NCBI GenBank assembly: GCA_000503875.1
Contig: CP006913.1
Span: 150,001-182,000 of the forward strand
From: Candidatus Saccharimonadota bacterium
Lineage (GTDB): Bacteria; Patescibacteriota; Gracilibacteria; Absconditabacterales; Absconditicoccaceae
Reading direction: 5' to 3'
Length of the DNA stretch: 32,000 nucleotides
Shown piece after piece: positions 1,977-32,000 of this stretch; the first letter of the stretch is position 1, and every line of letters starts with the position of its first letter. The translations under genes were made by a program, and so were the position numbers. The notes beneath the pieces are model-generated. The model was given only the letters and a program-made list of their open reading frames with translations, was not told the origin of the DNA and did no database searches.

Positions 1977-1999
1977 GTATATACTAAACAGAAAAAATT

Positions 2000-3778
2000 A
2001 TGGAGAAGAAAACACAAGTAAATCCAAAGAGAGTATTGAAGTATTTTCGACAGAAATATATGACAGAAAAGAAATTTTTCTTTCCACTCATTCTCTTGAG
2101 AACGGCATTAACTTTTGTCTGATTGTTGCCAGCAATTTATTTTAAAGAAATAATTAATGCGTTATCTTCTTTTACAGGAGGTGATAAACAGCAAATTTTT
2201 GCCGTAGCGATTGGATTGTTATTAACGATTTTTTGGATTAAGTTAATTAATGTCGCTGTTTACAGAATATCAGATTTTATGATCATCAATATGTCAGTAA
2301 ATATTATGAAAAAAATTTATTTAGAATGTTTCGACTATGTTCATAATCATTCTTTTAGGTTCTTTGCAAATAATTTTACTGGTTCACTTATCAAAAAAAT
2401 CAATAAATTTGTAGGAGCTTACGATAATATAACAGATACGTTGACGTTTGAAGTTAGTCCAATCCTTTTAAATCTGATTTTTATTTTGGTTATTATTGGG
2501 CTCCAAGATCGAAGACTATCATTGGTTATGTTCGTTTGGTTTGTTATTTTTACCCTCATTCAATATTTCTTATATAAATGGAATTATCCATATGAAATAA
2601 GAGCAAATGAACAAGATTCTAAGATTTCATGAGCATTGTCAGATACCATTACCAATAATTTTAATATTAAAGTATTTGGTTCACTTAGAAGAGAATATGC
2701 TACTTTTAAGGGAGAAATCACAACTTGGTCAAAATTACAAAAAGCAAGACGATATAGGGGTATGGTGATCTGGTCAACAACTGGAGTGCTTATGGTATTT
2801 ATAGAATTTATTGTCTTTTATATGGCACTAACATCATGGTCAACAGACCTTATAACGATGGGATTCTTCGTGTTGTTGCAAATGTATTTACTCAAACTAA
2901 TGGACCAATTATGGGTATTGGGAAATATATTTAGACATTTATACAGATGATTTAGTGAATCAGCTGAAATGTTAGAAATCTTAAATGAACAGCATGAAGT
3001 GCAGGATTCTCCAAACGCAAAATCGTTAAAACTTCATCAAGGAGTGATTGTATTCGATAAAGTATCTTTTGCGTATGAAGGGGAATCAGCAGTTTTCTCG
3101 AATCTAAGTTTTAGAATTAAACCAGGTGAAAAAGTAGCCTTCGTTGGAGAATCCTGAGCAGGGAAAACAAGTATCATCAAATTGTTATTCAGATTTTTTG
3201 ATATCCAGGAAGGAAAAATCAGTATAGATGATCAAGATATTAGTACAGTGACACAAGAAAGCTTGAGAAATAATATTTCATTAGTACCTCAAGACCCTAT
3301 CTTATTTCATAGATCAATTAGAGATAATATCTCATATGGAAATCCTCATGCTAGCGAAGAAGAAATCATTGCAGCTGCAAAGATGGCGAGATGTCACGTC
3401 TTCATTTCTAAACTTAATGAAGGGTATAATACGCTTGTAGGAGAAAGAGGAATCAAATTATCTGGTGGAGAGAGACAAAGAGTTGCTATCGCAAGAGCTA
3501 TCTTGGAAAACAAAAGTATCTTAGCCTTGGATGAAGCGACTTCAGCACTCGATTCAGAATCAGAAAAACTTATTCAAGAAGCAATGGATGAAGTAATGAA
3601 AAGTAAAACAGTTATCGTAATTGCACATAGACTGTCGACCGTTATGAAAATGGATAGAATTATCGTCATGGATAAAGGAACTATCGTTGAAGATGGTAGT
3701 CATGGAGAACTTGTTGCAAAGAAAAACGGTATCTACAAAAAACTCCGAGACATCCAAAGTGGAGGATTCGTAGAATAA
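2000..3778 (+). CDS. ABC transporter, fused permease/ATPase (MsbA/multidrug exporter type)
   Basis: Five track ORFs (2123..2632, 2636..2950, 2969..3157, 3182..3778, plus the N-terminus from ATG 2000) share one frame and are joined by TGA codons. Six-TM N-terminal half. Walker A GES-G-AGKTS has its TGA at 3155-3157. Signature LSGGERQR, Walker B ILALDEATSALD, H-loop IAHRL. Confidence 0.9.
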
Positions 3779-3824: not shown

Positions 3825-6596
3825 CTAATCTTTCATTTTACATTTACTAATTTCAAAGTTTAATAATTCAATTTCTTGTTTTATTTTGGAGATTTCATCT
3901 TTTTTTTGTTGGATTATACTATTGTCAGCTCCACTTGTATTAAGCTCTTGAACAAGATGTTTCAAATGTTGCATATATTCTTCTTTTTCTTGAAGTTGTT
4001 TTTGTAACAACAAGATGCCAGAAATACTAGGTTTGGACATAGCTTTTATTCCTATGGAAATATCAATAATGTCTTCTTTTTTGTAACCACAAGGGACTTC
4101 TTCATGATGAACAAGGTAAATAACATCTTCTGCATGTAATGTTTTTTTAAATAAGGATTCATTGCTTCTGGCAAATTTTATAAAATCTTGATTGGACCTG
4201 ATAAACAATCATACTACATCATGTTTTTTAAGTCCTAATCAGATTTTCATAGTTGAAAATCTATCTATAATTTCCATAAATAATGAGATAGAATAATTCT
4301 TTTGTATACTTGCAAAAGCTTTCAAAAATCAATTACTATCAATGTTTTTTTCAAATCAGAAAATATTTCATAATTCGTTGGTAAGTATTGGAAGATAAGG
4401 ATGAAGAAAAGATACAATAGTTTCTACAATACATAAACAAATATTACTAGAATGTTCAGATGGCGCAGATTTTATAAGTTCCAAATATTTTGAAGAAAAA
4501 TCTTGATGAATAAAATCAAAAACATTATGTACAAAAGTGCCTATTTGTTTTGGTGATTGTAGTTGTTGATACTCTTCTACAAGCTTAGTTAATTTAGAAA
4601 TAATTCGTCAATCAAAAGCACTAAATGTTGATATATTTTTTTCCAAGTTTTGTTGGATCTTTTTGTAGTTTATTGCCTTTGATCAATCAAAAAATGTTGT
4701 TTTAATATATCTACACGCATTCCAAAATTTGGAAATTGATTGATCCCATTCAGTAAAAATTTGTGAATCATATGTCTTTTCACTATCAGCTAAGGAAAGC
4801 AAACTTACTCTGATACAATCAGGATGATATGATTTTGTGATAGAAAGCTCGGCAACAGGTAAATTATTAGAATCTTTTTCGTTTTTTAGAGAAGGCAAAA
4901 CATGAATAGCTTCCAAAAAAGAATGGCCTAAATTATATTGAGCAAATAAAATATTTTTGATAGCTATTTTTAATGCATCTTGTTTGCTACAAAAAGTAAG
5001 AAGTTGGTTAATATCAGTTTTTTCTGCTTCTTGTAAAAGCATAGCTATTGTTGAAAAGTCATAACTGATGACTTGTTGATATTGCTGGATATCTTTCATA
5101 TCCGGATCAAATTTTTCAAAAGCAAAATGATATTTTTCATGTGCTCATTTTTCTAAACAAAAAGCATCATCTAAAATATCCAAAAGTTGGCTTACATTCT
5201 TTTCTAATGATTTCTCTTTATCAAGATTTTGAATAGCTTTTTCTAATACATCGAATTCTTTTTTTGTTTGAGGATATATTATTCCAATAAGAGAAAATAA
5301 CTGAGTAAACGATACTTGATCATGTGTATCGAAAATCATTGTTATAAATTCTTCTGCAGAAAATGTTGGTGGAAGTAGGTGATTAGAAATACAATGAAGA
5401 ATAAATAATCATAGTGCTAATCCTTGTTTAATTCAAACTGTTTTGTATGCCTCTTGTAATCGATTAGCATCCAAAATAAAAGTTCACTTCGTATTTGATC
5501 GTAAAGGAACAGGTACTCATGTTTTTTGATGAGCAGAAGCAATTCGATAAGAATTATCAATATAATCACGAGTAATTCCTGTTGAAGAAATAATTGCTTG
5601 ATTAAAAAATGATTCTATAGCCTCATCAGGGATTTTTACAAAAAATCCTTTCCAACTACGAAATATAAGATGTTCTTTGCTTTGTTGACAAACAGGTATT
5701 GTTCCTGTAAAGGATTCTGTATTGGTAAGATTTCCTATATCAGATAAGCTTTGTATAATATTAGAAAAAAATTCTTCAACAGATTTTTTTGCAAATAATC
5801 CAGCATTTTCTGTGAAATATCAATCTTTATCAATAGCATATGTATCAATTGGTAAGTTATGATCTTTGGCGATAGCCAATCATAATTTATCATGACCAGG
5901 AGTAACTCTATAAACACCACCATATCTAGTAAAATCAGCTCTTTCATCGATAATAATAGGAATTGTTTTGTTGATAATAGGAATAATGGCTTCTTGTCCT
6001 TTCAATTGTTTTGCCTTTTTATGTTGTGGATGAATAGCTATAGCAACATCCCCAAAAATAGTTTCAGGAGATTCTGTCATAACATCTAAAGAATGGTTTT
6101 TTGTACTAACAAAATATTTAATAGTATAACGATTCTTTTTATTTGAAATATGCTCTACTAGATCAGAAGCAACAGGTGTTTGATGTTTTGGGCTTCGATA
6201 TACAAGAAAACGATCTTCAAAAAGAGTCCCTTTGCGTAAGTGTTCTGCAAAAAATTGTTGAAGCGAAAAAGCAAAAGCAAAATCTTGCGGTATTTGTAAG
6301 CCAGGAATTAAATTAGAAAGTCAGAATTGTTTTAATTGTTTTTTTAAAAAAGAAAGAGAAGTATGGCTTTTTTCCTTGGTATCATGTAATGGATCCGGTA
6401 GGAAAAATCCTCACGAAAGAGGTTCTCCATAACGAATAGTATGAATAGTATCTAGCAAAAATAATCTAAATATTTGTTGGATATCAAAAGCATTTGTATA
6501 TTGCTCGGGAAGAAAAAAGAAAGGATGGTGTTGAGAAGAAAGTGATGAGTAAGAATCTATTTTTGTTTGTTTATATTGTTTTGGAAAATCACTCAT
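3825..6596 (-). CDS. valS: valyl-tRNA synthetase homologue (class I aaRS fold; HIGH and KMSKS signatures not recognisable)
   Basis: All minus-strand track ORFs 3825..4208, 4683..5099, 5145..5339, 5880..6080 and 6411..6596 share one frame. I translated the gaps 4209-4682, 5340-5879 and 6081-6410 and found only TGA, no TAA/TAG. ValRS blocks present: TESPETIFGDVAIAIHPQHKK, GGVYRVTPGHD, DGRIISKL..SSKYLELIK, KFWNACRYI, HPYLPILTNEL, C-terminal coiled coil. ATG at 6596, TAG at 3825-3827. Confidence 0.8.
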
Positions 6597-6654
6597 ACGC
6601 AGAGAAGATTGAAATAAAATGCAGGGATTATTTATTTAAGAAAGAGAGCCTATA

Positions 6655-9432: not shown

Positions 9433-10389
9433 ATGATTAAGAAAATAAGTAAAGCAGTAATTATGATGATAACATTGCTAGGTATCGGTATGTGAGCAAT
9501 GCATGCAGTAGCACCATCATTTGATGATAATTTTGCTAATTATCTCACTGATAAAACTCCTGATCAATACGGAAGAGTAGAAACGGTATTTAGTTTTTCA
9601 AATTGTATTGATAGAAATCAAAGTATTATGGAGAATGTAAGAAATCTTTTCTATCCAAGTACTTTCAAAAGTGACAATCAATGTTCTTTAACAACAGGAG
9701 GATTGCTTTGGGATATGCTTAGAGTAATTACTTTTGCATTGATATTTGTCTTTATTGTAGTAGCAGGAATGAAATTTATTATGAATGGAACATCCTGAGA
9801 TGAAGCAAAAAAATGAGCAATGAGTCTTGTCTATATTGCATATGGAGCATTTCTTGTTTTTGGCGCAATTTGGATTTTGTGATACGTCCTCAATATAGAA
9901 AACGTGAAATGATCAACAGATCTCGTAAATAGTGTACAGAATAATTTATTTCTCCAAATTTTAAGTTTTTTCAAAGTATTGGCCTTTTTCCTAGCTATTA
10001 TTATGATGGTAGTATCATGATTTAAGATGATGGCTGCTATGGACAAAGAAGATAAAGTCAAAGCAGGAAAGCAATGAGCAATAAATGTAATTGTCGCATT
10101 GGTGTTTATCAAAATTGTAGATTATATTTTTTATATTGCACAAGCATCTGATTTCGCACAAAAAGCATCAACCTTGGTTTTGGATGTAGCCAAAATTCTT
10201 TGATGGATTCTTGGTATTTCATTTGTATTGGGGCTATTTTACGCAGGATATCAAATGTTCCTCTCTGGTGGAGATGAAAAAGCAATCAAAAAGACACAAT
10301 CAATTCTGATCAATATCGTTATCGTTTCTCTTGTTCTTTTCTTATTCTTACTCTTGGTGTACCAAATTTTCAATGAATTTGTAGGATAA
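9433..10389 (+). CDS. membrane protein made of three tandem TrbC/VirB2-like pilin hairpins
   Basis: ATG 9433, signal/TM MIKKISKAVIMMITLLGIGM. Three successive TM-charged loop-TM modules with loops NGTSGDEAKKG, AAMDKEDKVKAGKQG and LSGGDEKAIKKTQ. About 9 in-frame TGA. TAA at 10387-10389. Track ORF 9499..9798 is its first third. Confidence 0.65.
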
Positions 10390-14410: not shown

Positions 14411-14531
14411 ATTGAAGGACTTAGAGACTTAGCAAAGTGAGTAGTTTATATTACCTGCTTTTCTAAGTTACTAGTTTCTTCTCCAAAATTTCTTTTGCCA
14501 CAAGGCAATTTTATATTTTCTTTATAAAAAT

Positions 14532-16667
14532 ATGTCAATAAAAAGAAAAGAGGTGAAAGTGATCGCTAAATCTTTTGATCGAGCAGGAAAATCGCTTTCA
14601 TTTGAGACAGGAAAATTAGCGGTACAAGCTGATTGTTCTCTCAAAATCGATTTAGGAGACAATCAATTGTTATGTTCTACGGTTATGGAAAAGAATCCAA
14701 GATCTGATATGGATTTTTTGCCATTGATGATTGATTTTAGAGATAGTTATTCTGCAGTAGGAAGACTTGGTGGTGCAGCATACAGAAGAAGAGAATGAAG
14801 ACCTTCTGATCAAGCAGTTCTTTACTCAAGACTTGTAGATAGAGCACTTAGACCAATGTTTCCAAAGGGGATGATCAATGATGTAATTATCACTATTTCT
14901 CCACTTGGAGTAGCTCAAGATATAGATCTTGGTGTAATGTCTATTGTAGGATCTTCATTATCAATTATGGTAGCAGGAATTCCTTTTGATGGTCCAGTAG
15001 GAGCGGCTCAAGTAGGATATATTGATGGTCAATATATCATCAATCCAACAAAAGAACAATTAAAAACGTCACTTCTCAATCTTCTCGTTTCAGGTAAAAA
15101 AGGATCAATCAATATGATCGAATGTGAAGGAAACGAAATACCAGAAGAAATTCTTAAACAAGCATTTGTTGAAGGACAAAAAGCAATTGACGAATCTTGT
15201 GATGCACAAGCAGCGTATCTTAAATTATGTACGGTTGAACCTAAAAAAATAGTATATAACAAACCATCAGACGAAGTTATCGCCTATGTTTCAAATATTC
15301 TTACTGCTGATAAACTTTCAGCTATGACAGGAAACGCAAAAGTAGGATTCAACGAATTATTTAGCAAATATGAAAAAGAAGCTATCGAAATAGCAAAAGA
15401 AAATATTGAAAATAACGATCTCGAAGATTTCACAGAAAGTAAGGTAAAGATGGCAGTCTTTTACGTTATCAAACATTTCCTTCGCCATCGTACATTAGAG
15501 ACAGGAAAGAGAATTGACGATAGAGATATCAAAGAAATTAGAACACTATATTGTGAAGTAGGATTGTTTCCAAGAACTCATGGAACTGGTTTGTTCCGAA
15601 GAGGGGATACGCAAGTACTAAGTACCGTTACTCTAGGAGGTCCTGGAGAATACCTTATTATCGATGATATGGAAAATGATTATGTGAAACAAAGATATAT
15701 GCATCATTACAATTTCCCTCCATTTTCAGTGGGAGATGCAAAAGCTATTAGAGGAACAGGTCGTAGAGAAATTGGACATGGAAGATTAGCAGAAAAAGCT
15801 ATCGAACCTATGCTTCCAGCAAAAGAAGACTTCCCATACACTATCAGAGTTGTTTCTGATTGTCTAGGATCAGGAGGTTCTACATCAATGGGATCAGTTT
15901 GTGGATCAACACTTTCATTAATGGATGCTGGAGTACCTTTGAAAAAACCAGTTGCAGGAATTGCAATGGGATTGATGACAGAACATGAAGAAGACGGAAC
16001 AATCACTAAACATATGGTGCTTAATGATCTTATGGCAACAGAAGATTTTATGGGAGATATGGATTTCAAAGTAGCAGGAACAAAAGAAGGAGTAACAGCT
16101 ATCCAACTTGATACCAAACTCAAGGGAATTACTATGGATATCGTTCATGAAACTATCACAAGAGCATGCGAAGGATACAAAGAAATTATGGATTTTATGC
16201 TTGAAACTATCCCTGCACCAAGAACTGCAGTTGGTACCTATGCACCAAAGATCTTCACGATGAAAATTAGCCCAGATAAGATCAAAGAAGTGATCGGAAA
16301 ATGAGGTGATGTGATCAACAAGATTATCGAAGTTTCTGGTTGAGTAAAAATCGATCTTTCAGATGATGGAATGTGTTTTATCACGCATCAAGATCAATTA
16401 GCTATCGACAAGGCAGTTGAGATGATCAAAGAAATCATTACTGATCTTGAAATTGGACAAACGTTTGACGCAAAAATCACAAGAGTAGAGGAATATGGTA
16501 TTTTCGTTCAACTTCCAAAGAAGAAGATGGGACTTTGTCATGTCTCTCAACTTGGACAAAAATTCACCCCTCCATTGACGAATCATTTCAAAATAGGAAC
16601 AACTCTTAAAGTTACTATCACATGAATCGATCCTACAGGTAAGATTTGATGTAAAATAACAGCTTAA
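14532..16667 (+). CDS. pnp: polyribonucleotide nucleotidyltransferase (PNPase)
   Basis: Track ORFs 14532..14798, 14856..16304 and 16371..16625 share one frame. TGA codons fall on RRE-G-RPS (14796-14798) and VIGK-G-GD (16302-16304). Two RNase PH domains, then KH and S1 (GQTFDAKITRVEEYGIFVQL). TAA at 16665-16667. Confidence 0.95.
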
Positions 16668-20168: not shown

Positions 20169-22190
20169 TTAATCATCATATCCTTGTTCATCTAGAGTCA
20201 TACCAACAATAGCTTCTTCTGGAGCTAGATCTATAGCAGCTTGAGGATCTCTATTGATATAAACATACATTGGCATAATCATAGGAACTCTACCAATAAT
20301 TTTGGTAATAAATTCACCTAAATCTTCTTTGATAACCCTCAAGTTATCTTTGATATCCATACGTCTTTTGATGTTTTCATTGTATTTTGCTCTGGCAAAT
20401 TCTACAATTTGCGTATGAATAGTTTTTACTTCAGAAGAGTAAACAAATCATCTAGATTCAATCTGAATATTTCAGATAAGTTCTCTTGTTTTGGTGTCAA
20501 TTTTGAAAATCAACGAAACAACTCCACTTTCTGCCATAATTCCACGAGCTTTGATAACATATTCTCCAGATAAATGTCCTTTTCCTTTTCCATCTACAAG
20601 AATTTTATCAAGTTTAAGTCTTTCATTTGAAACAAGGACAACATCATCATACATTTCTATGATATTTCCATTAAGGTTTGGCATAAGAATTTTTTCGTTA
20701 GGCATTCCCATATCAAGAGCTATTTTTTTGTGAGCATATCTTTCTGCTGCTGGCATATAGAATGGCAAGAAAAAATTTGGTCTCAATAAACTTAAGAAAA
20801 GTTTATGATCTTCCATATATCCATGTCAACTAGCATGTACATCTATTTCATCATTTGTTATAAGATTAACATCTCTTACAACCAAATCATTGATCATATG
20901 ACCCACAGCTGATTCATTTCCTGGAATAGTAGAAGCAGACATCAATATGGTATCATCTTTTCTCAATTGAAGAACATTGTGTTCTCCTTTCGCCATTCTT
21001 GTTAATGCTGCAAATTCTTCTCCTTGAGCACCTGTAGAAAGAATAAGTACTCTATCATCAGGAAGAGTATCAATTTCGCTACTCAATTTACGAATAAATC
21101 AAGCTGGAACAGTAATATATCATAATTGCTGACAAATTTCTACATTGTTGATCATAGATCTTCCTGAAAGAAAAATAACTTTGTTATACCTAATAGCACT
21201 GTTGATAATTTGAATAATTCTTCATACATTAGATGCAAAGGTAGCAATAATCATTCTTGTTTTTGTGTTTTTGATAATATCGTCCAAATGTTTTCCAATT
21301 ACTTTTTCGGAAATAGACCATCCTGGTCTGTCTGCTCCAAGACTATCTCCAATGTATAATTTTACTCATTCAGTTCCAATTCTAGCAAGTTTTGCCAAAT
21401 CAGCTGGTTTATCAATAGCAGGCGTATGGTCAATTTTGAAATCAGATGAATTGAAAATAACTCCTTTTGGTGTTTGAATAGAAATAGATAATGTTTCTGG
21501 AATATTGTGGTTTACTCTTACAAATTCCAAAGAAAAACATCCTATTTTGAGCAAATCAACATCAGGATCTATAATTTTATATTTAATTTTTGCAGCTTCT
21601 TTTGGGTCATCAAAAGTTTTTTTGAGGATTCCTAAAGTAAGTGGGGTAGTATAAATCATAGGATAATCTAAGTCAGGAAGAATATCTCTAAGTGCTCAGA
21701 TATGATCTAAGTGACCGTGGGTCAAAACAATCCCTCTTAATTTTGCTTTGTTTTTTTTGATATAAGAAATATCTGGAATAATATAATCTGCACCCAATTC
21801 AGATTCCGCAGCGAATTCCATTCCTGCATCGATAATTATAAGGTCTTTATCATATTCTATAAAAAGGCATTGTCCAACTTGTTCTAATCCGAGCAAACTT
21901 CATATTCTTACTGGTTTTTCACCTTTCTTAATAAGTTTTTTGGGATCATCTATAAGTGTTGTGTTTTCTTGAGGCTTTGTGTGGCGTAAAAAAGCTTCAG
22001 AAGTTAATCTTTCTCTTTGAGGACCTCTTGGTGCTGGTCTTCTTGGGGGTACTCCACGAGGATTTGTTGATACTCCACGAGGATTTGTTGATACCACACG
22101 AGGAGTAGTTGGTACTCCACTAGGAATACTTGGTACGTTTGGTTTTGGATTGTTTTTTTTGTTGAAATCAATACTAAGATTTCATTGCAT
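20169..22190 (-). CDS. rnj: ribonuclease J (metallo-beta-lactamase/beta-CASP) with an N-terminal Pro/Arg-rich repeat extension
   Basis: Six track ORFs (20169..20360, 20472..20816, 20826..21086, 21366..21659, 21696..21896, 21900..22097) share one frame. IIIDAGMEF, LTHGHLDHI-G-A (TGA at 21696-21698), plus beta-CASP and C-terminal domains. ATG 22190 gives M-Q-G-NLSIDF. Confidence 0.9.
22050..22133. repeat. four 21-nt tandem repeats inside the rnj 5' region
   Basis: TACTCCACGAGGATTTGTTGA occurs twice exactly (22050-22070, 22071-22091), followed by two degenerate copies. These encode the heptads PSIPSGV-PTTPRVV-STNPRGV-STNPRGV. Confidence 0.8.
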
Positions 22191-22249
22191 AACTTGATTC
22201 ATGTTGTTGTAAATACATAAAATATAAAATTTATTTGTTTCTATTTCCA

Positions 22250-22795
22250 ATGAACGATTTGTTATTGAAACTCAGACAAAATGCAGAAATGAGGAGAGTC
22301 CCTATAATAAGTAGGCAGACAGAAGAATTTCTTAAAGAGCAGCTTCTGAAATATAAACCTCGTCATTGTATAGAAATAGGAAGTGCTATATGATATAGTA
22401 CAATCTTTGTTGCAGCCCTAATGCAAGCTTGGAACGGCCAAGTAACTTCATTTGAAGTGGCTTATCCAGCTTATTTGGAAGCGTTAATGCATATCAAAGA
22501 GGCGAACCTCCACAATATTACATTATATCCATTTGATATTGTCACTAGCGATGTAAGAAAATTTGTACCAAAAAAATGAGATTTTTTCTTTGTTGATTGA
22601 CAAAAAAGTCAGTATTGAGTATATTTACAGGAGATAGAAAATATAAAAGAAGAAAATAGTCTGATTATTATTGATGATGTCATCAAATTTCATAATAAGT
22701 TAGATTGATTATACGAATATCTTTCCAAAAAGCAAATTAATTATCAAATCCTTCCAATGGAGGAAGGAGATGGTATTATGATAATTAAGCACTAG
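22250..22795 (+). CDS. class I SAM-dependent O-methyltransferase (family 3, YrrM/TrmR-like)
   Basis: ATG 22250. PIISRQTEEFLKEQL..HCIEIGSAI-G-YSTIF (motif I), FFFVD-G-QKSQY, IIIDDV. Five in-frame TGA, so it is absent from the ORF track. TAG at 22793-22795. Confidence 0.7.
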
Positions 22796-25491: not shown

Positions 25492-25561
25492 ACAATGTAA
25501 ATTGATACTAATCTTCACCAAAGAATCAAGAGAAAAGGAAATTATTACTCATAAATAAAAT

Positions 25562-26551
25562 TTATAAAACTTTAGTTAAAACTTTTTGCATTTTTATAAT
25601 TTTCTTTTGATAAGGGTATACTTTGGTTTTTGTGCCAAGAAATGATGCAATCAAAAAAAGATGTAATCTCGTACTAATAACAATTTCAGCTCATTTCACG
25701 ACATCAAGAAATGTTGTAAAATCACGTTCCCAATCCAATAATTCAAGGTGGGTATTGTATTTCAAAAGGTCATAATATTTTCCATCATTATATTCTATAT
25801 TTTTTCCTTTACTCACAGGAACATAGTAAATATGAAATCCTTTTTTTACGTACTGTTGAATATCATTTATAATATTTTCCAAAAATTTTTCTCCATTTTT
25901 ATTTACGTTGACAATAATATATTTCGCTTTTCCTATTTTGCTTTTCTCTTTTTTCCACTCCCACGCAAAATATGCCGTATCCATAAAGAATTCGACATCT
26001 TTATATCAATATATTTTCAATGCGTCAACCGTTTCGAAGTCTCTTGCATAAATATGCGTTGTTTTTTGAAGAAGATAATTAAATAATTTTATATTCAGAT
26101 TTTTGTTTGGTATTTGTATTCATCCCATAAGATAAATATCGACTTTCACGAGAGTTTTTTTCATCAATATTGGTAATAAGGAGACGAGTCGGTATCGATA
26201 AGAATTAGGATTTTCCTCCGTGAGAATTTCTCAGCCACCAACAATTACACTATGAATCTTTCTATATTCCCAGATTTCACTCCATCATTGTTTCCAGATA
26301 TAACGTAGTAATGACCTTACTCCCTTGGGGATTTCTGTGAGAAAAGTGATATCTGAAATATCCACAAATTGCTTGAGAAATCCCCTCAGCCACTTGGGAT
26401 CATATGCTTGTATCCATATTTTTTTGCCTTGTTGTTGAAGAAGTTTGATTGTCCCTGCCAAAATTAACTCGTCTCCTAAATTTTTGTAGGATCGGTTCCC
26501 AATAATCAATACGTTCGTTCATTGGATATTCAGATTATTATTTGTTTTCAT
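25562..26551 (-). CDS. polysaccharide pyruvyl transferase (CsaB-like)
   Basis: ATG 26551. Track ORFs 26285..26509 and 25691..25984 share one frame; I translated the gap and found only TGA. Motifs NRSYKNLGDELIL, VIVGGGEILTEE, ISTRLHLFLIASFLGTKTKVYPYQKK. TAA at 25562-25564. Confidence 0.7.
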
Positions 26552-26614: not shown

Positions 26615-29600
26615 TTATTGTTGAGGTGTTGTTGTTTGATGAATTGTTCTCCATCGATTGTTTAGATATGATTCTAGAAGAAGTTTATTTGATCTTTCAT
26701 CAAATTTCTCACTATTTTTTGTTAAACCATCTTCAGAGAAAACTCTAATTGTCTTTTCTTTTCCATAGAATTCTAGGGCTCATAAGTAGGTTGTGTCAAA
26801 AGCATCATCACCGATATCTCCATTTGTTTCTTTGTCGATAGTAACCGATTTTGCTTTGTTGATAGCATTTGTTACTTTAAATAATTCTTCATAAGTCTCA
26901 AAAGACAGAGATAATCAAGTTATTTTTTTTGAAGTAAGATCAATAGGTGTTGATTGTTCATATGTCTTCAAAGAAACATTTCCTTTTTCATCTTTTTCAA
27001 ATTTAATATTTTTTTCTTCAGAAGGATGCTCTTTATAAAAAGCTTTGAATCCATCTATGATTTTTTTTCTAGTATCAGAATTTGTAAAGTTTTCTATAAC
27101 AGGAAAGAATCATTCTGCTTTATCTTGCATTAACCAAAGATTATTGAGATATTCTATATAAAGTTGTTTGTTGCTTGTTTCAGTTAATTTAGGAGAAACA
27201 GTTCTCAAACCACCTCGCCACAATCCATCAGAAACAGCTGCCACATCTGGTCTTCGATTTCGTATAGATTTATCATCAAATATTATATCATCATTAGCAA
27301 TTTTTTGACCAAAAGGATCTATTATTTTTTGTGATTGTATGTTTTCAAATGTGCTTCTAATTTTGTTGGTTAGATTTGCTGTTTTAAACATATCTTCAAA
27401 GTTACCAAAATCTATATTTAGACCAGCAACTTGATTTTTATTGAAATCAATAGGCGTTGTTTTTCTATAACTGTTTACGTTCAATGTATTTCCAGCAGCA
27501 ACTAATTCAACTCAAATAGTTTTGATGCTAGGATATTTTTGGTAAAATTCTTTATAATCTTTTTTGATTTTTTCTTTTGCTGCTTCAGAAAGATCGAGTT
27601 TGTTTATTTCATCTATATCTTTTTGTAATTTTTCTTGATCTATAATATTTGCATCAATTTCTTCTTCAACTTCTTCTGTTGTGTCTAATGCAGCACTTCA
27701 AGTAGCGACAGTAGGAATTACAAATGATTCGTTACTATTTGTTCATCCTTTTCGATGTTTCTGATTATTTAAATAATTAACATAGGCATCTTTGCTTGCA
27801 TCACCTGCAAGTTGTTGAGATATTTTTTCTAATCCATCATTAGAAATCATAGTCACATCTTGATTCCATACTTTATATCGTTCAGTATTATCAAAAGTTA
27901 TTCTGCTACCTACTCCAGCTATTCACTTTTCAATATAGAAAGGTTTATCTGTTTTTATAGGTGTAAGATTTCTAGTTAAGTTCTTTATTCTGTTTGTTAA
28001 ATTAGCTACACGAAGAAGTTCCTTAGTCATAGGAAATGTCATGGCAGATCCATTTTGATTTACAAGTCCAGGAATTGATTTATTCCCAAGATCCAATGGA
28101 GTAGATTCATTGTGTGTAGTCAAAACAAGTTTTCCATTTTGTTTTTCTAGATTAATATCTGCTTTTGAATCCATATAGAATTGATAAACAGCTTCATGAA
28201 GTTGCTTTTTTTCATCTTCAGTGACATCTGTAAGCGCATCAATTTGGGTATCTAGTTTTGTTTTTATTTCAGGAGCAATATCTACTGCTTTTTCAAATAC
28301 ACCTAGTGATTCTAATTCGGCTAATGTAGGAGAACCTGTTTTTACAAAAGATACAATTCTATCGTCCACTTCTTTGTTGGTTTGATCATATCAATTGTCT
28401 ATCATATGTTTGTTAATAAGTAGTGCTCTTTGAATAACATCATTAGCTAGTTTATCAAATTTTTCTTTTTCATTTTTTGGATCACTTAATGTTGCTCGAT
28501 CTAGACCGACACCTTTCAAAGCAAAATCTACAATGCCTTTTTCATCTTCTTTTCCTATGTTTTCCAAAAATTCTTTTCTCATTTTTGCTTGATTGATTTC
28601 ATCAGCTGTTTTTCCTGTTGGATTTTGAATAATATTCTTATAATTAATCATTTGTGCTTCTCGAATATCTGGTTTAATTCTCATTTTTCAATCGCTTCAT
28701 AATTGAAGCATATCTTTCATTTTTCCGTATGTTTCTTGTCCAAAAAGAAGTGATGCTCAACTTACAGATTGTGCAAGTTGTTCTATTCAAGGTGATTGAG
28801 CACCATTTTCTTTATTATTATCTCCTTTAATCCATCCAAGTATTTTATTAAAAGTAGTTGCTCATTCTCATCCTTTAAACAAATCTTGAGGTCTTCCAGC
28901 TGTAAAAAGAAGAAGTCATGCAGCTCCTCATAACCATCACCAATTGCTAGCATCTTTATAGCCATCTTTTTTAAACATTATATTCCATGTACTTTTAATG
29001 GCTTTCCATCAAAGAAATATTCCTCCAGCAAGAAGTGCAACATTCCCAAAAGATTTATAAAAATTTTGACCTCTCTCCGTGGTATTTTGAATTCATTTTG
29101 ATGCATTATCAAGATAAGAAAATAGTCATTTTTCTGTATTTTGATCAATATTTTCATTTACTGAATCGTTATTAGTACCTGTTACTGTTTTTTCTTTATT
29201 ATCTGCATCTCCTGCGATATTAACATTTCCTCATTGATCAACACCTGCAGGATTTGTGATAACAATATTTTTTGCTAAATAAGGATGTTCGTTTTGTAAG
29301 TTCTTAAGAAGAGTAGTAGTGTATTCGTATGCTTCTTTGTTTTTTGGTGTATAAGGATATTTAGTAGGATCTTTTTTGTTATTTACAATATCTTCAAGAT
29401 ATTTTTGAAAATCTGCCAAATCTTCTGCGCGCATTTGTTCTAAAGTCGCGTTTCCAGTTATTGCATCAACCTTGGCTTGTCTTTTATTGTAGCTTTTTAT
29501 TGCGTTTAAATAATCTTTAGCATCTTTTTGACTAAATTTAGTTGCATCTATGTTGTATGCTGGAGTAATATCAGCTGTTCAGCTTCTTAAAGCTTCATCT

Positions 29601-30304
29601 TGTGATTCAAAGAGAGGAACGTTATCACTAAGTTTATCTAATTGTTGAGAGATATTCTTTAATTTATTTTCGATAAGAGGATCAGAAATATCTAATTCTC
29701 TCATTTTCTTTTCAACATTTCTTAGATCTTTAAGGCGTCTTTCTGATTCATCTTTATGTATTTCTCGATATCTTCTTTCTTGTTTAGATCTGGCATATTT
29801 TGCAGTAAGTCGAAATTGTTCTCTTCTTCCACTATCTTTTTGATCATCAAAAAACTTTTTGAGTTCGTTAATTCTTCGATTGATAACAGTTGGGTTTGTT
29901 GTTCTTTCATGATGAGCTAAGATCTCATTACGCAAAGCCTTTATTTCGTTTGAAGTACCACGAGTAATAATAAGTTGATCTTTTTCTAATCCTGATAAAC
30001 GAACAGCAATATTCTCATCTACCTGTTTTTGTTGTTCAAGAAAACTTAATATAAATTTCTCTACATCATAACCATTTGCTAGCGCAAATTTTGTTTCTTG
30101 TTTGTTGTTGCCCAAAAGAGTAAAGATGTAGCTATCTCAATTTTTTTGTATTTTAATATCTTTGAGATCTTTTACATTATTTTCATTTAGGGTTAGCAAA
30201 AACTGGGCCTCATTGTTTATAAAACTCAATGGGGCAGTGTCTTTTACCTCTGAGATCTGGATTGTCTTACTATCCATTGTGTAATCGATAAATAAAAGTT
30301 TCAT
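26615..30304 (-). CDS. giant orphan membrane protein (about 1229 aa): N-terminal coiled-coil region, central TM hairpin, repeated C-terminal modules
   Basis: Track ORFs 30137..30373, 29579..30115, 29231..29434, 28391..28684, 27923..28369 and 27110..27484 all share one frame. I translated every gap and found about 23 in-frame TGA and no TAA/TAG until TAA at 26615-26617. Start taken at ATG 30304 (alternative 30277), downstream of the preceding terminator. Confidence 0.7.
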
Positions 30305-30334
30305 TACCAAGTATATTCCAAAAAACTTTTCAAT

Positions 30335-30368
30335 CAAAAAAAATCCACCTTTTATATAAAATGGATTT
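30335..30368 (-). terminator. probable rho-independent terminator between the 197-aa gene and the giant gene
   Basis: Minus strand reads AAATCCA..loop..TGGATTT followed by T8. The loop is long and AT-rich. Confidence 0.45.
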
Positions 30369-30399
30369 GACAATTTATTTTTAAATGATTTAATATGTT

Positions 30400-30993
30400 T
30401 TAGCTATAAAGTTCGTTTTTTACCTGTAAAATAAATTTTTCACGCTGCTCTTCATCCAAAGATGGAATATCGTATAGTTTATAATGATTTATGACAGCTA
30501 TCAAAAAGTCCATAAGAAGTGACGCATCCAAAGGGATATTGTCATGATATTTGATAGATAATTTTTTGATATAATTGATATATCATGTTAAATTCATGGG
30601 TTCCTTGGTAAGTAGTTCTTCAAAAACTCAAGAAATTCAGATTTTTTTTGCTTCTTGTATATAAAAAGGAAAAAAGAATCAGATTACTACCAATGTATTT
30701 ATTTTTTTTCTCAAATATGTTGTCCCTGTGGAAGGGTGTTTTGTTTTGAAAAAAAGTTCATATAAAAGTGTTATAAGTTTTTCATCTTTTATATTATTTA
30801 TAAGAAAAGTAAGAAAACTTGCCAATTTAGCATTAGCTTGTTTATCTTGCTGTATTTGTTGATGAACTTGTTTTGCCTGTTTTGATTCTTCCTGGATTCT
30901 TCTAGTAGCTTCTTCGGTTACTTTGTTGATATCTTCTCTAGGTGCTCATCCAATATCTAGTCCTTCTCAAAGGTTTCAAAATTCATTCGCCAT
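30400..30993 (-). CDS. hypothetical protein, 197 aa
   Basis: AGGAAAC precedes ATG 30993. MANEF-G-NL-G-EGLDI-G-GAPREDINK.., about 8 in-frame TGA, one hydrophobic segment (LVVIGFFFPFYI). TAA at 30400-30402. Absent from the ORF track because of TGA density. Confidence 0.5.
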
Positions 30994-31119
30994 GTTTCCT
31001 TTCCTATAAAATAAAATGGCTATAATTATATATGTACCAATAGTTAAATTAGCTTGAAATTCAACACCAATTAAGTATATGATAAAACACTGCTATTTTT
31101 TTGTTGCAAAAAAAATCAA

Positions 31120-31206
31120 GGTGAGGTGGATGAGTGGCCGAAATCAACTCACTGCTAACGAGTCAGACGAGTAATCGTCTCGCGGGTTCGACTCCCGCCC
31201 TCACCG
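31120..31206 (+). tRNA. tRNA-Ser (anticodon GCU), class II
   Basis: GGTGAGG-TG-GATGAGTGGCCGAAATCA-ACTCA-CTGCTAA-CGAGT-CAGACGAGTAATCGTCTC-GCGGG-TTCGACT-CCCGC-CCTCACC-G. It has the long variable arm and a canonical T-arm. Confidence 0.85.
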
Positions 31207-31226
31207 AGTTGTGTAAACATACAATT

Positions 31227-31440
31227 AGACATGGCACCGCAAACGAAGTGCGTCCAGCTCCGCAGGATAGCTCAGTGATTAAGAGAGCATCTGTTGAGTT
31301 ACGGGAGATAAATAACCTCCCAAACTTATTATTATAGACATGGCACCGCAAACGAAGTGCGTCCAGCTCCGCAGGATAGCTCAGTGATTAAGAGAGCATC
31401 TGTTGAGTTACGGGAGATAACCTCCCAAACTTATTATTAT
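31227..31440 (+). repeat. two tandem copies (109 and 105 nt) of a tRNA-like element sharing leader and 5' acceptor strand with the downstream tRNA-Met
   Basis: 31227-31335 and 31336-31440 are identical apart from a 4-nt indel in the loop of a GGGAG..CTCCC hairpin. Each starts AGACATGGCACCG, as does the tRNA-Met gene at 31441, and contains the D-arm-like TAGCTCAGTGATTAAGAGAGC. Neither has a T-arm or a 3' acceptor strand. Confidence 0.85.
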
Positions 31441-31446
31441 AGACAT

Positions 31447-31520
31447 GGCACCGTAGCTCAGTTGGTTAGAGCGCGCCTCTCATAAGGGCGAGGTCGGCGG
31501 TTCGAATCTGCTCGGTGCTA
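31447..31520 (+). tRNA. tRNA with CAU anticodon (elongator Met or lysidine-modified Ile2)
   Basis: GGCACCG-TA-GCTC-AGTTGGTTA-GAGC-G-CGCCT-CTCATAA-GGGCG-AGGTC-GGCGG-TTCGAAT-CTGCT-CGGTGCT-A. Cloverleaf complete. The T-stem has two G-U pairs and 1:72 is G-U. Confidence 0.8.
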
Positions 31521-31544
31521 AATTACCTAGAATGCCTGTCGCTG

Positions 31545-31622
31545 ACCGAGCCCTTAGTGGTAAACGGCGGCAAAGTCCTATGCGAAATGAAATGAAGTCA
31601 TAGGATTCGAATCTGCTCGGTG
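31545..31622 (+). other. orphan structured segment ending in a second copy of the tRNA-Met 3' end
   Basis: TTCGAATCTGCTCGGTG (31606-31622) repeats 31501-31517 exactly. ACCGAGC (31545-31551) pairs perfectly with GCTCGGT (31615-31621). Internal 8-bp stem GTCCTATG/CATAGGAT (31575-31582 with 31599-31606). No cloverleaf can be drawn. Confidence 0.4.
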
Positions 31623-31687
31623 ATGAAATTGAATGTGGTCATCTCATCATTCAAACATAAGTTTTATTTATTTTAATTTGTGAAATT

Positions 31688-31861
31688 ATGGCAAAGAAAA
31701 AAGGAGGAAGAATCATTGTTGCTATGCAATGCAAAGAATGTGGTGCTACAAACTATCAAACAATGATTAACAAAACAGCTACTCCAAAATTGGAACTTAA
31801 AAAGTACTGTAAAAAAGACAAAAAGCACACAACTCATGCATCAAGAGAAAAACTTAAGTAA
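31688..31861 (+). CDS. rpmG: 50S ribosomal protein L33
   Basis: 57-aa [60 protein letters not shown]. CxxC...C zinc-ribbon pattern and the LELKKYC motif of L33. Below the ORF-track length cut-off. Confidence 0.9.
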
Positions 31862-31899
31862 TTTTTTCTAACAAACAATTTTATACTTAACACTATTTC

Positions 31900-32000
31900 A
31901 TGTTAAAAATCAGATTATCAAGACAAGGAAGAAAAGGGAGACCTTTCTATAGAGTTGTTCTTACAGAACACACAAAGCCAGTAAAATCTTCTTTTAAAGA
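31900..32000 (+). CDS. rpsP: 30S ribosomal protein S16, 3' end beyond window
   Basis: ATG 31900: MLKIRLSRQGRKGRPFYRVVLTEHTKPVKSSFK matches the S16 N-terminus (MVKIRLxRxGxKKxPFYRIV). Confidence 0.85.
   Translation, partial: MLKIRLSRQGRKGRPFYRVVLTEHTKPVKSSFK

Follow-up and report, generated by a model that had tools for sequence, protein, structure and literature searches.

In a 32,000-nt stretch of DNA from Candidatus Saccharimonadota bacterium (GenBank assembly GCA_000503875.1, contig CP006913.1, positions 150,001 to 182,000; referred to here as the window), an intact tRNA gene with a CAU anticodon is preceded by two tandem partial copies of its own 5' end and followed by a partial copy of its 3' end. 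These flanking modules are absent from the closest relatives and patchily present in others; a similar layout recurs at tRNA-Met genes of related lineages, and elsewhere it is associated with genes for small GIY-YIG nucleases. The reading favored here, at a probability of roughly 0.55, is that the modules are not tRNAs or tRNA halves but gene-less relics of a selfish element targeting tRNA-Met genes, or pieces of such an element moved by a nuclease encoded elsewhere. The proposed link between the modules and the gene-bearing cassettes rests on shared layout and on the shared locus in relatives, not on sequence.

Anatomy of the modules

On the forward strand the locus reads tRNA-Ser, unit 1, unit 2, tRNA(CAU), 3' element (31521–31622), rpmG, rpsP. 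The sequence features described here in an initial annotation of the window were all found in place. The tRNA(CAU) gene at 31447–31520, which it had called normal-looking, is a full-length match in Rfam (62.8 bits) and is also reported by ARAGORN; it is of elongator type (C11:G24, G1.U72), either Met or Ile2. Most likely this intact gene does the translational work, with the flanking modules as non-functional passengers.

Upstream of it, Tandem Repeats Finder reports a 109-nt period with 2.1 copies (31226–31453). The two head-to-tail units of 109 and 105 nt are, as proposed, identical once ATAA is removed from a hairpin loop. Unit 1 (31233–31341, forward strand, as are all parts of both units) consists of GGCACCG, a 28-nt insert (31240–31267), a D-arm-like segment (TAGCTCAGTGATTAAGAGAGC, 31268–31288), a GGGAG..CTCCC hairpin (GGGAGATAAATAACCTCCC, 31303–31321), and an A/T-rich tail with the tRNA leader (31322–31341). 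The same components are present in unit 2 (31342–31446): insert 31349–31376, D-arm-like TAGCTCAGTGATTAAGAGAGC 31377–31397, GGGAG..CTCCC hairpin 31412–31426, and tail 31427–31446. The 5' end shared by the units and the tRNA gene is one nucleotide longer than first described (14 nt rather than 13). This direct repeat, TAGACATGGCACCG, comprises a 7-nt tRNA leader and the 5' acceptor strand, and occurs on the forward strand at 31226–31239, 31335–31348, and 31440–31453 and nowhere else in the window. The junction from one unit to the next reads ..TTATTATAGACATGGCACCGCAAACG... Each unit is a 3'-truncated tRNA copy in which the tRNA sequence is interrupted after position 7.

The 3' element, also on the forward strand, begins with a diverged spacer (31521–31543), followed by a 65-nt core (31544–31608) that includes ACCGAGC (31545–31551), D-loop-like TTAGTGGTAAA, the T-stem 5' strand CGGCGG (31565–31570), a 35-nt hairpin insert (31571–31605; stem TCCTATG/CATAGGA), and the start of a T loop. 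Both repeats noted initially are real: CGGCGG starts at 31495 in the tRNA and at 31565 in the element, and the 17-nt tRNA 3' end TTCGAATCTGCTCGGTG at 31501 and 31606. The second TTCGAATCTGCTCGGTG copy (31606–31622) covers the T loop, the T-stem 3' strand, and five bases of the acceptor 3' strand; the final CTA of the tRNA is not repeated after it, and a weaker similarity runs for about 8 nt more. In this element the tRNA sequence is interrupted between positions 53 and 54. A 7-bp stem, ACCGAGC/GCTCGGT, had been proposed to close the structure. It can be drawn, and ACCGAGC occurs just once in the window (31545), but an equal match is found in 5% of shuffled spacers, and the homologous stem in a related locus (L093, below) has an A.C mismatch. 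The long repeats exceed chance; the 7-bp stem is weak evidence.

Copy number across assemblies

The same population was also assembled independently as L001/L065, where a single upstream unit, of the 105-nt form, is present and unit 1 is missing; two other assemblies (L066, L071) break within the tail at the end of the unit, 18–23 nt 5' of the tRNA. The unit 2 form is present wherever assemblies reach it, and the 3' element is identical across four assemblies. An assembly artefact, one of the options raised initially, might account for two units in the window versus one in L001 and for the two breaks, but there is very little chance that it produced the modules themselves: four independent assemblies agree exactly on one unit and on the 3' element, other lineages have homologous modules, and the unit-to-unit junction extends beyond the 14-nt repeat, so that a de Bruijn assembler would presumably have needed reads for it. 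The breaks in L066 and L071 would then be branches in the assembly graph, as expected if one unit truly adjoins another in some members of the population. The true copy number of the upstream unit may be one or two.

Distribution among relatives

A scan based on ribosomal protein S16 (the rpsP product) gave 36 loci, to which further look-ups added L072 and L079–L093. The order tRNA-Ser, tRNA-Met, rpmG, rpsP is conserved in 27 of the 36 (L002–L028), all labelled Absconditabacteria/SR1, Gracilibacteria, Peribacteria, or unclassified Patescibacteria. In ten loci whose S16 is 84–94% identical to that of the window, the gap between tRNA-Ser and tRNA-Met is just 4–24 nt and there are no downstream tRNA fragments. 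The loci are L002–L007, L072, and L090; in addition, L093 lacks the upstream unit and L079 the 3' element. The short spacers and missing fragments in these close relatives identify both modules as recent insertions. Relatives without modules also carry the region just 5' of rpmG (31639–31687, forward strand), composed of the motif TCATCTCATCATTCAA (31639–31654) and an A/T-rich block, TTTTATTTATTTTAATTTGTGAAATT (31662–31687), which therefore marks the end of the inserted DNA.

Homologues of the upstream unit over its full length were found in two other lineages, as a single unit in L008, where the GGGAG hairpin is not conserved, and as a tandem pair in L079 with a 27-nt direct repeat on its flanks. 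The older member of this pair has decayed and its tRNA-like motifs are lost, with GGCACCGC becoming AACACATT and TAGCTCAG becoming TAGGTTGG. The 3' element is present in L093 as two tandem copies, and the core of both is identical to that of the window at 65 of 65 positions. The two modules occur independently, since L079 and L008 have only the unit and L093 only the 3' element. Both presence and array length vary among close relatives.

The identity of the core stands out against a background of 87% for rpsP DNA, 84% for rpmG, 80% for the upstream gene, and 76% at third codon positions; the 22 nt of spacer just 5' of the core match L093 at only about half of positions. By our own arithmetic, the probability of 65 identical positions in a row is about 1e-4 to 1e-8 at 76–87% background identity. 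An identical core in a diverged background points to recent horizontal spread or to strong constraint. Spread is favored because the distribution is patchy, with the element missing from a relative whose S16 is 94% identical and present in one at 88%. The last L093 copy, which adjoins the native flank, has the T loop TTCAAAT where the working tRNA has TTCGATT, as a displaced resident 3' end would, which suggests that it may be one.

Searches with nhmmer and blastn for the unit and the 3' element in the loci collected up to then matched L008 only, plus a weak and possibly spurious match in L021; the L079 and L093 homologues were found later, through the additional S16 look-ups. A metagenome scan for TGGCACCGCRAAC..TAGCTCAG returned 24 loci, all of them unrelated high-GC chance matches. 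Scans of viral contigs for the unit pattern and for the 3' core gave no matches, and in a DNA search of a phage collection with the whole region the tRNA itself was the sole match.

In L021, an insertion of about 76 nt lies between tRNA-Ser and tRNA-Met (1981–2101), with a 15-nt flanking direct repeat, CCGATTTTCTAAYTT, that includes the tRNA-Ser 3' end. It is weakly similar to the L008 unit (ACTAG(C)TCAGGRTGG; CGCGATA(A)CAA).

tRNA-Met as a hotspot

Partial tRNA-Met copies are found within 1 kb of the gene in seven SR1 lineages (the window, L008, L010, L013, L014, L022, and L028). The same scan with the adjacent tRNA-Ser found nothing beyond two chance 10-mers. Copies upstream of the gene have no 3' end and copies downstream have no 5' end; the D, anticodon, or T loops or arms are replaced or interrupted by hairpins, while the segments that are kept are about 95–100% identical to the neighboring tRNA. 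The breakpoints cluster at the T loop, in the window and in L010, L014, L028/L064, L063, L067, and L074. The junction in the window is GGCGG / insert / TTCGAATC, that in L010 is insert / TTCAGTC, and those in the downstream L014 copies are GGTTCGAG / insert / TCTGCC; the L014 upstream copy ends in GTTCGAG and the L064 upstream unit in GGTTCGAGT.

The tRNA-Met spacers of L014, L019, L022, L026, and L028 (with variants in L013 and L025) also hold A/T-rich imperfect hairpins of about 80–100 nt, built of short repeated motifs (AACTAACA..TGTTAGTT; AGACTTTAG..CTAAAGACT). These may be small mobile elements, processing sites, or something else.

The same layout with GIY-YIG genes

At seven loci (L028, L064, L063, L067, L068, L069, and L074), from which the layout was defined, tandem 3'-truncated copies are followed by an intact tRNA, one or more small GIY-YIG genes, and a 5'-truncated copy with an insert at its T loop. 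The GIY-YIG genes encode 80–92 amino acids and lie immediately 3' of intact tRNA genes (Met, Val, Lys, or Pro), at 1631–1876 and 1947–2192 in L028, 288–533 and 604–849 in L064, 139–381 and 515–760 in L063, and 901–1146 in L074; they are also present in L067, L068, and L069. In L028 and its ungapped twin L064, both SR1, at least two upstream copies of 84 nt and tRNA-Met are followed by a tandem pair of modules, each an open reading frame (ORF) for 81 amino acids plus a 5'-truncated copy. The ORF encodes a GIY-YIG domain (Pfam PF01541, E 3e-15), and its stop codon lies within the D loop of the downstream copy; at the other loci the copy begins just past the ORF. The final copy of L028/L064 carries the 3' end of another tRNA-Met sequence type, which suggests that a resident tRNA gene was displaced by an incoming one.

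A search with the L028 protein returned two clusters only, and the family became visible only through a Bacteroidota homologue, 37% identical, that led to the same architecture in contigs L062 and L063. Genes for GIY-YIG proteins of about 81 amino acids occur in Bacteroidota amid the same hairpin-substituted copies (decoys) in L062, L063, and L074–L078. In the Bacteroidota chromosome L074, five upstream copies of tRNA-Val precede the intact tRNA-Val and the GIY-YIG gene; downstream lies a copy whose T loop is interrupted by a hairpin insert of about 75 nt and which closes with the last 16 nt of the tRNA. At E<1e-8 the Bacteroidota family numbers 453 protein clusters; many come from contigs of less than 1 kb, a length typical of repeats. 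Databases annotate these proteins as putative endonucleases only. Full-text literature searches, with most subscription journals outside their coverage, found no description of GIY-YIG genes with hairpin-substituted tRNA copies.

In the decoys the anticodon arm is replaced by a hairpin of conserved sequence, (T)AGAGCR-TYCCGA..TCGGRA-RGGTC, with a loop of about 2–6 nt. A regular expression for it matched in L022 (2026), L028 (1299, 1482, 1881, and 2197), L062 (65), L063 (35 and 404), L064, L067 (124), L068 (150, 236, and 679), L069 (7346 and 7380), L074 (409–719 and 1160), and L075–L078; L021 has the hairpin alone (1861). The viral contigs L067–L069 were found by this pattern alone and all three carry GIY-YIG ORFs; L067 has three upstream copies. 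Conservation of the stem sequence across phyla suggests that something may recognize it. SR1 and viral decoys also share a homologous D-loop insert of 19 nt, which passes from a C-rich to a G-rich part, ends in TAAA, and lies just 5' of GT(T)AGAGC (about 1903–1921 in L014, 1271–1289 in L028, and 214–232 in L067).

The window resembles these cassettes in its tandem 3'-truncated upstream copies with tRNA leader and 5' acceptor strand (shared segments of 14–27 nt), in a downstream 5'-truncated copy that adjoins the native flank, has a hairpin insert at its T loop, and finishes with the 17-nt tRNA 3' end TTCGAATCTGCTCGGTG (in the layout generally, the terminal 16–31 nt of the tRNA; compare L010, L063, L067, and L074), and in the variation in presence and array length among close relatives. 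It differs in having no small GIY-YIG gene (about 81–92 amino acids) 3' of the tRNA. At gene-bearing loci the nuclease gene occupies the spacer between tRNA and downstream copy that corresponds to 31521–31543; these 23 nt and the rest of the 3' element are too short for a gene. The 32-nt spacer of L010 was considered as an internally deleted GIY-YIG gene, but its alignment to the L064 cassette is ambiguous and it is not relied on. The upstream unit was also considered as a remnant of a GIY-YIG gene or other small ORF, but the unit contains no ORF and the modules are missing from most relatives, and the idea was dropped.

In principle such debris could have arisen with no nuclease or selfish element involved, if slippage or unequal crossing-over had locally duplicated the sequence in tandem and the copies had then decayed neutrally and gained small insertions. 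The 14- and 27-nt direct repeats could support unequal crossing-over, assemblies differ in copy number, one L079 copy is plainly decaying, and there is no nuclease gene nearby. This explanation is nevertheless judged improbable. It does not account for an effect seen at tRNA-Met while tRNA-Ser is spared, for the exchange of arms for hairpins beside segments that are about 95–100% identical, for the identical 65-nt core in non-sister lineages whose genes are 80–87% identical, or for the recurrence of the layout, with GIY-YIG genes, across phyla.

Another of the initial suggestions was that an integrase acting at a tRNA att site, here to insert and later excise a phage or island, left these remnants; it fits insofar as there are mobile-element traces at a tRNA gene. 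tRNA genes classically serve as att sites, the 17-nt 3' repeat looks like an attL/attR pair, and, as at such sites, foreign DNA is bordered by a directly repeated tRNA end, the intact tRNA is kept, and presence varies between strains or relatives. Integrase duplications, however, are one continuous block of identity, derive from one end of the tRNA, flank kilobases of DNA, and come with an integrase gene. In the window each end of the tRNA has been copied, the copies contain hairpin interruptions and run past the repeat, 88–105 nt separate the repeats (just 88 nt for the 3' pair), and there is no integrase in about 40 kb (roughly 30 kb upstream, from Pfam searches of the window proteins, and 10 kb downstream, from recorded Pfam matches of L065 genes). 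Related loci with this layout carry GIY-YIG genes rather than integrases, and the phage collection matched the tRNA and no module. The modules are therefore very unlikely to be integrase scars.

RNA structure and possible function

Neither module is called as a tRNA. A permissive Rfam search (E up to 10) of 30800–32000 found only the two real tRNAs, ARAGORN reported three tRNAs in the window, none of them in the modules, and no tmRNA (transfer-messenger RNA). In eight related loci Rfam found tRNAs, plus weak tRNA matches to two decoys.

That the modules are halves of a second tRNA, split, intron-bearing, or otherwise alternative, was also suggested. In favor of this, a D arm and a 5' acceptor strand are present in an upstream unit, T-arm pieces and most of a 3' acceptor strand in the downstream element, and both inserts begin with CAAA and end with AGGA. 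This idea can nonetheless be all but dismissed. No anticodon arm can form, and with it no complete cloverleaf; the outer acceptor strands pair at five of seven positions plus one G.U; neither ARAGORN nor Rfam calls the pieces; and these occur independently in L079 and L008 versus L093 and are missing from most relatives, including the closest. We know of no splicing machinery in bacteria for such tRNA introns. Archaeal split and multi-intron tRNAs are similarly interrupted at non-canonical positions, but here the host is a bacterium, there are no bulge-helix-bulge motifs, no anticodon arm can be reconstructed, and the pieces are independent of each other.

Folding z-scores on both strands range from -0.5 to -2.5 overall, with -2.2 to -2.5 for the units and -0.9 to -1.6 for the 3' element. 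The consensus fold of the two units is weak (-5.7 kcal/mol). In an alignment of four unit sequences, which are few for such a comparison, 69.2% of cells are paired versus 67.9% in shuffled versions, whose mean covariation score exceeds that of the real alignment; the 3' core is invariant and so uninformative for covariation. In these few sequences, nothing marks the upstream unit as a constrained RNA.

A functional tRNA-like RNA, comprising at least the 65-nt core and perhaps the units, could act as a small RNA or processing element; possible roles include a substrate or decoy for RNase P or RNase Z, a leader for rpmG-rpsP, or an RNA partner or antidote of a nuclease. The core is identical to that of L093 although its spacer and the surrounding genes have diverged; the 3' element can be drawn with an acceptor-like 7-bp stem, a D-loop-like AGTGGTAA, a long hairpin, and a T-loop sequence; it is probably within the tRNA transcript, as no terminator was found; and the hairpin stem of the wider family, kept across phyla, hints at recognition. 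On the other side, the core is absent from most close relatives, one of them with S16 94% identical, which argues against a housekeeping role, the folding of the 3' element is unremarkable, its 7-bp stem is at chance level and mismatched in L093, and the units show no covariation in four sequences and match no Rfam family. Such a function appears unlikely. As to the tRNA-derived small-RNA family initially proposed, a family does exist, with the unit in three lineages and the 3' element in two, but its patchy distribution, the decayed L079 copy, and the lack of covariation do not favor a small RNA, and only the invariant core keeps that option alive.

Among known tRNA pseudogenes and tRNA-like RNAs, the tRNA-like domain of tmRNA, the bacterial Y-RNA-like YrlA, and the Bacillus "tRNA-Other" are partial tRNA mimics in which another helix takes the place of the anticodon arm. 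These RNAs are conserved, single-copy, vertically inherited, and covarying, and have partner proteins such as SmpB or Rsr; the modules are patchy and tandem, lack one acceptor strand, and show no covariation. Two more specific candidates were dropped: the 3' element as a tmRNA-like RNA has no G3:U70 pair and no ARAGORN tmRNA call, and a leader mimic that binds L33 was set aside from the sequence, most relatives being without the modules.

A possible mechanism

On the favored reading, a small free-standing GIY-YIG nuclease would first cut the tRNA gene at or near the DNA for a conserved loop, for example the T loop. Recombination repair would then copy in a cassette with an intact tRNA of its own, leaving disabled, 3'-truncated copies upstream and a 5'-truncated copy downstream, beside the native flank. 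Replacement or interruption of loops by hairpins would yield copies that keep homology to the tRNA but are not functional tRNAs and presumably not nuclease targets. Unequal recombination between repeats would finally expand or contract the arrays, giving for example the one or two units here, the two 3' elements of L093, and the five upstream copies of L074. The modules of the window would descend from such a cassette, would have no cellular function, and would have lost the nuclease gene or never had it. For homing in the strict sense, in which the nuclease would cut alleles without the element at the insertion site and repair would copy it in, the only support is indirect: the apparently displaced resident 3' ends in L028 and L093 and the precedent of the phage endonuclease SegB.

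The closest experimentally characterized analogue is this SegB, which phages T4 and T6 encode as a free-standing homing endonuclease of the GIY-YIG type (reviewed in PMC2988022). In the tRNA cluster of phage T6, SegB cuts inside tRNA genes, with the preferred motif RAWTSGAAC, the complement of T-loop GTTCSAWTY; it can act in trans, and it drives a tandem amplification that depends on recombination, is unstable, and collapses (PMC13096335). T-loop breakpoints, tandem arrays, and copy-number variation are likewise seen in the window and in L028, L064, L067, and L074. SegB differs in being a larger phage protein with a DNA-binding part that amplifies intact tRNA genes, whereas here the loci are chromosomal, the proteins are of about 81 amino acids, the copies are disabled and hairpin-substituted, and the window has no nuclease gene. 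The stand-alone "GIY-YIG nuclease family protein" of Bacteroidota (about 81 amino acids, PF01541) is accompanied by the same decoy layout, again in contrast to the gene-less window.

Otherwise near-identical tRNA-Met genes (window 31501–31507 compared with L002–L014, L072, L079, L090, and L093) differ mostly in the T loop (TTCGAAT, TTCGATT, TTCAAAT, TTCAACT, TTCGAGT), and also at one D-loop base. The variable T-loop positions are those under the SegB cleavage motif. Such variation may be expected if nuclease-resistant variants are favored; it proves nothing, as these positions vary in tRNAs generally.

Several points weigh against descent from a nuclease-bearing cassette. There is no GIY-YIG gene in the window or the 10 kb beyond it (about 42 kb in all; L065; tblastn with genetic code 25 and two to three queries). 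A regular-expression search of the tRNA region found neither the signature hairpin of the family nor the D-loop insert ending in TAAA in the window modules; the hairpin of the units is another one, GGGAG..CTCCC, and nothing in the 3' element substitutes for the anticodon arm. The inserts have no sequence homology to those of any gene-bearing cassette by nhmmer or blastn. The 65-nt core, perfectly kept beside a spacer that has diverged, might owe its conservation to purifying selection on some function and not to recent transfer. Finally, the GIY-YIG proteins of about 81 amino acids have no obvious DNA-binding domain, and their cleavage of tRNA genes is putative.

A more speculative alternative, held as a tentative possibility, is that the modules are active, non-autonomous members of a multi-phylum class of selfish "tRNA-gene replacement cassettes", in which decoys and conserved hairpins (TCCCGA..TCGGGA, the D-loop inserts ending in TAAA, and the T-loop inserts) are working parts rather than scars. 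The nuclease of about 81 amino acids, having no DNA-binding domain of its own, might then work together with the hairpin-substituted tRNA decoys, which might serve as homology arms that resist the nuclease, as RNA antidotes, or as RNA partners lending target specificity; the core at 31544–31608 would be a functional tRNA-like module that has recently spread between SR1 lineages.

Nuclease-driven rearrangement of tRNA genes is known from phages, and the window is a degenerate, gene-less variant of a chromosomal layout. If relics of such elements are correctly recognized here, the SegB result, nuclease-driven tRNA amplification, would extend from phages to bacterial chromosomes, and minimal GIY-YIG genes beside essential tRNA genes appear to bring with them a replacement tRNA and disabled decoys. 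If the decoys or hairpins are functional, they would represent a new route to specificity for a minimal nuclease, or to immunity for the host allele. For annotation, this would explain tRNA-like fragments and assembly breaks beside tRNA genes in genomes of the Candidate Phyla Radiation and Bacteroidota, fragments that are otherwise liable to be annotated as pseudo-tRNAs, split tRNAs, or att sites. For the present genome the practical message is modest, and the window is mainly of interest as an entry to the wider class of GIY-YIG genes with tRNA decoys.

Genomic context

The window has a G+C content of 32%. ORF calls with genetic code 11 are fragmented, and reading TGA as a sense codon restores long genes, with TGA at conserved glycines such as those of the KH-domain GKGG of PNPase (14475–16667) and the Walker A GESGAGKT of an ABC transporter (1988–3778). 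The genome uses genetic code 25, in which UGA is glycine, and resembles the SR1/Absconditabacteria genome RAAC1, which has 31% G+C and the same reading of UGA (PMC3812714). The region is chromosomal, with neighbors that include RNase J, PNPase, and YqeY.

A promoter-like site at 31054–31083 (forward strand; TTGAAA, 18-nt spacer, TATGAT; 10 of 12 consensus positions match) lies 5' of the tRNA-Ser(GCU) gene (31120–31206, forward), which is intact by ARAGORN and Rfam (tRNA, 50.1 bits). Between this site and rpmG neither another promoter-like nor a terminator-like site was found. A single transcript probably runs from it through the whole tRNA cluster, and the modules are probably transcribed passively, as spacer inside a tRNA-Ser to tRNA-Met precursor. 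Downstream are rpmG (ribosomal protein L33, 57 amino acids; 31688–31861) and rpsP (S16; from 31900 past the window end), both on the forward strand and both identified by Pfam matches, L33 and S16 respectively, on the same genes in L001.

Immediately 5' of the rpmG start codon, the motif TCATCTC(G/A)TCATTCAA followed by TTTTATTTATTTTAATTTGTGAAATT is kept in close relatives, and an A/T-rich block resembling TTTTATTTATTTTAATTTGTGAAATT is found at 25549–25572 on the minus strand, 5' of tRNA-Leu(GAG). The rpmG-upstream motif and A/T-rich block may be a lineage-specific promoter or leader.

Two minus-strand genes adjoin the tRNA cluster upstream (26615–30403 and 30400–31092); they encode proteins of 1263 and 197 amino acids without Pfam matches, and the pair is conserved in relatives. 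Farther away, a 937-amino-acid ORF (3825–6635, minus strand) has motifs resembling those of class I aminoacyl-tRNA synthetases by eye, such as VTPGHD, and may correspond to an additional, fragmented copy of valyl-tRNA synthetase that has been reported in RAAC1 (PMC3812714). The gene at 9433–10389 encodes a type IV secretion system pilin-like protein (PF18895). The RNase J gene (20169–22301, minus strand) contains a 21-nt tandem repeat of about four copies (22048–22136), which encodes PRGVSTN repeats in an N-terminal extension of the protein.

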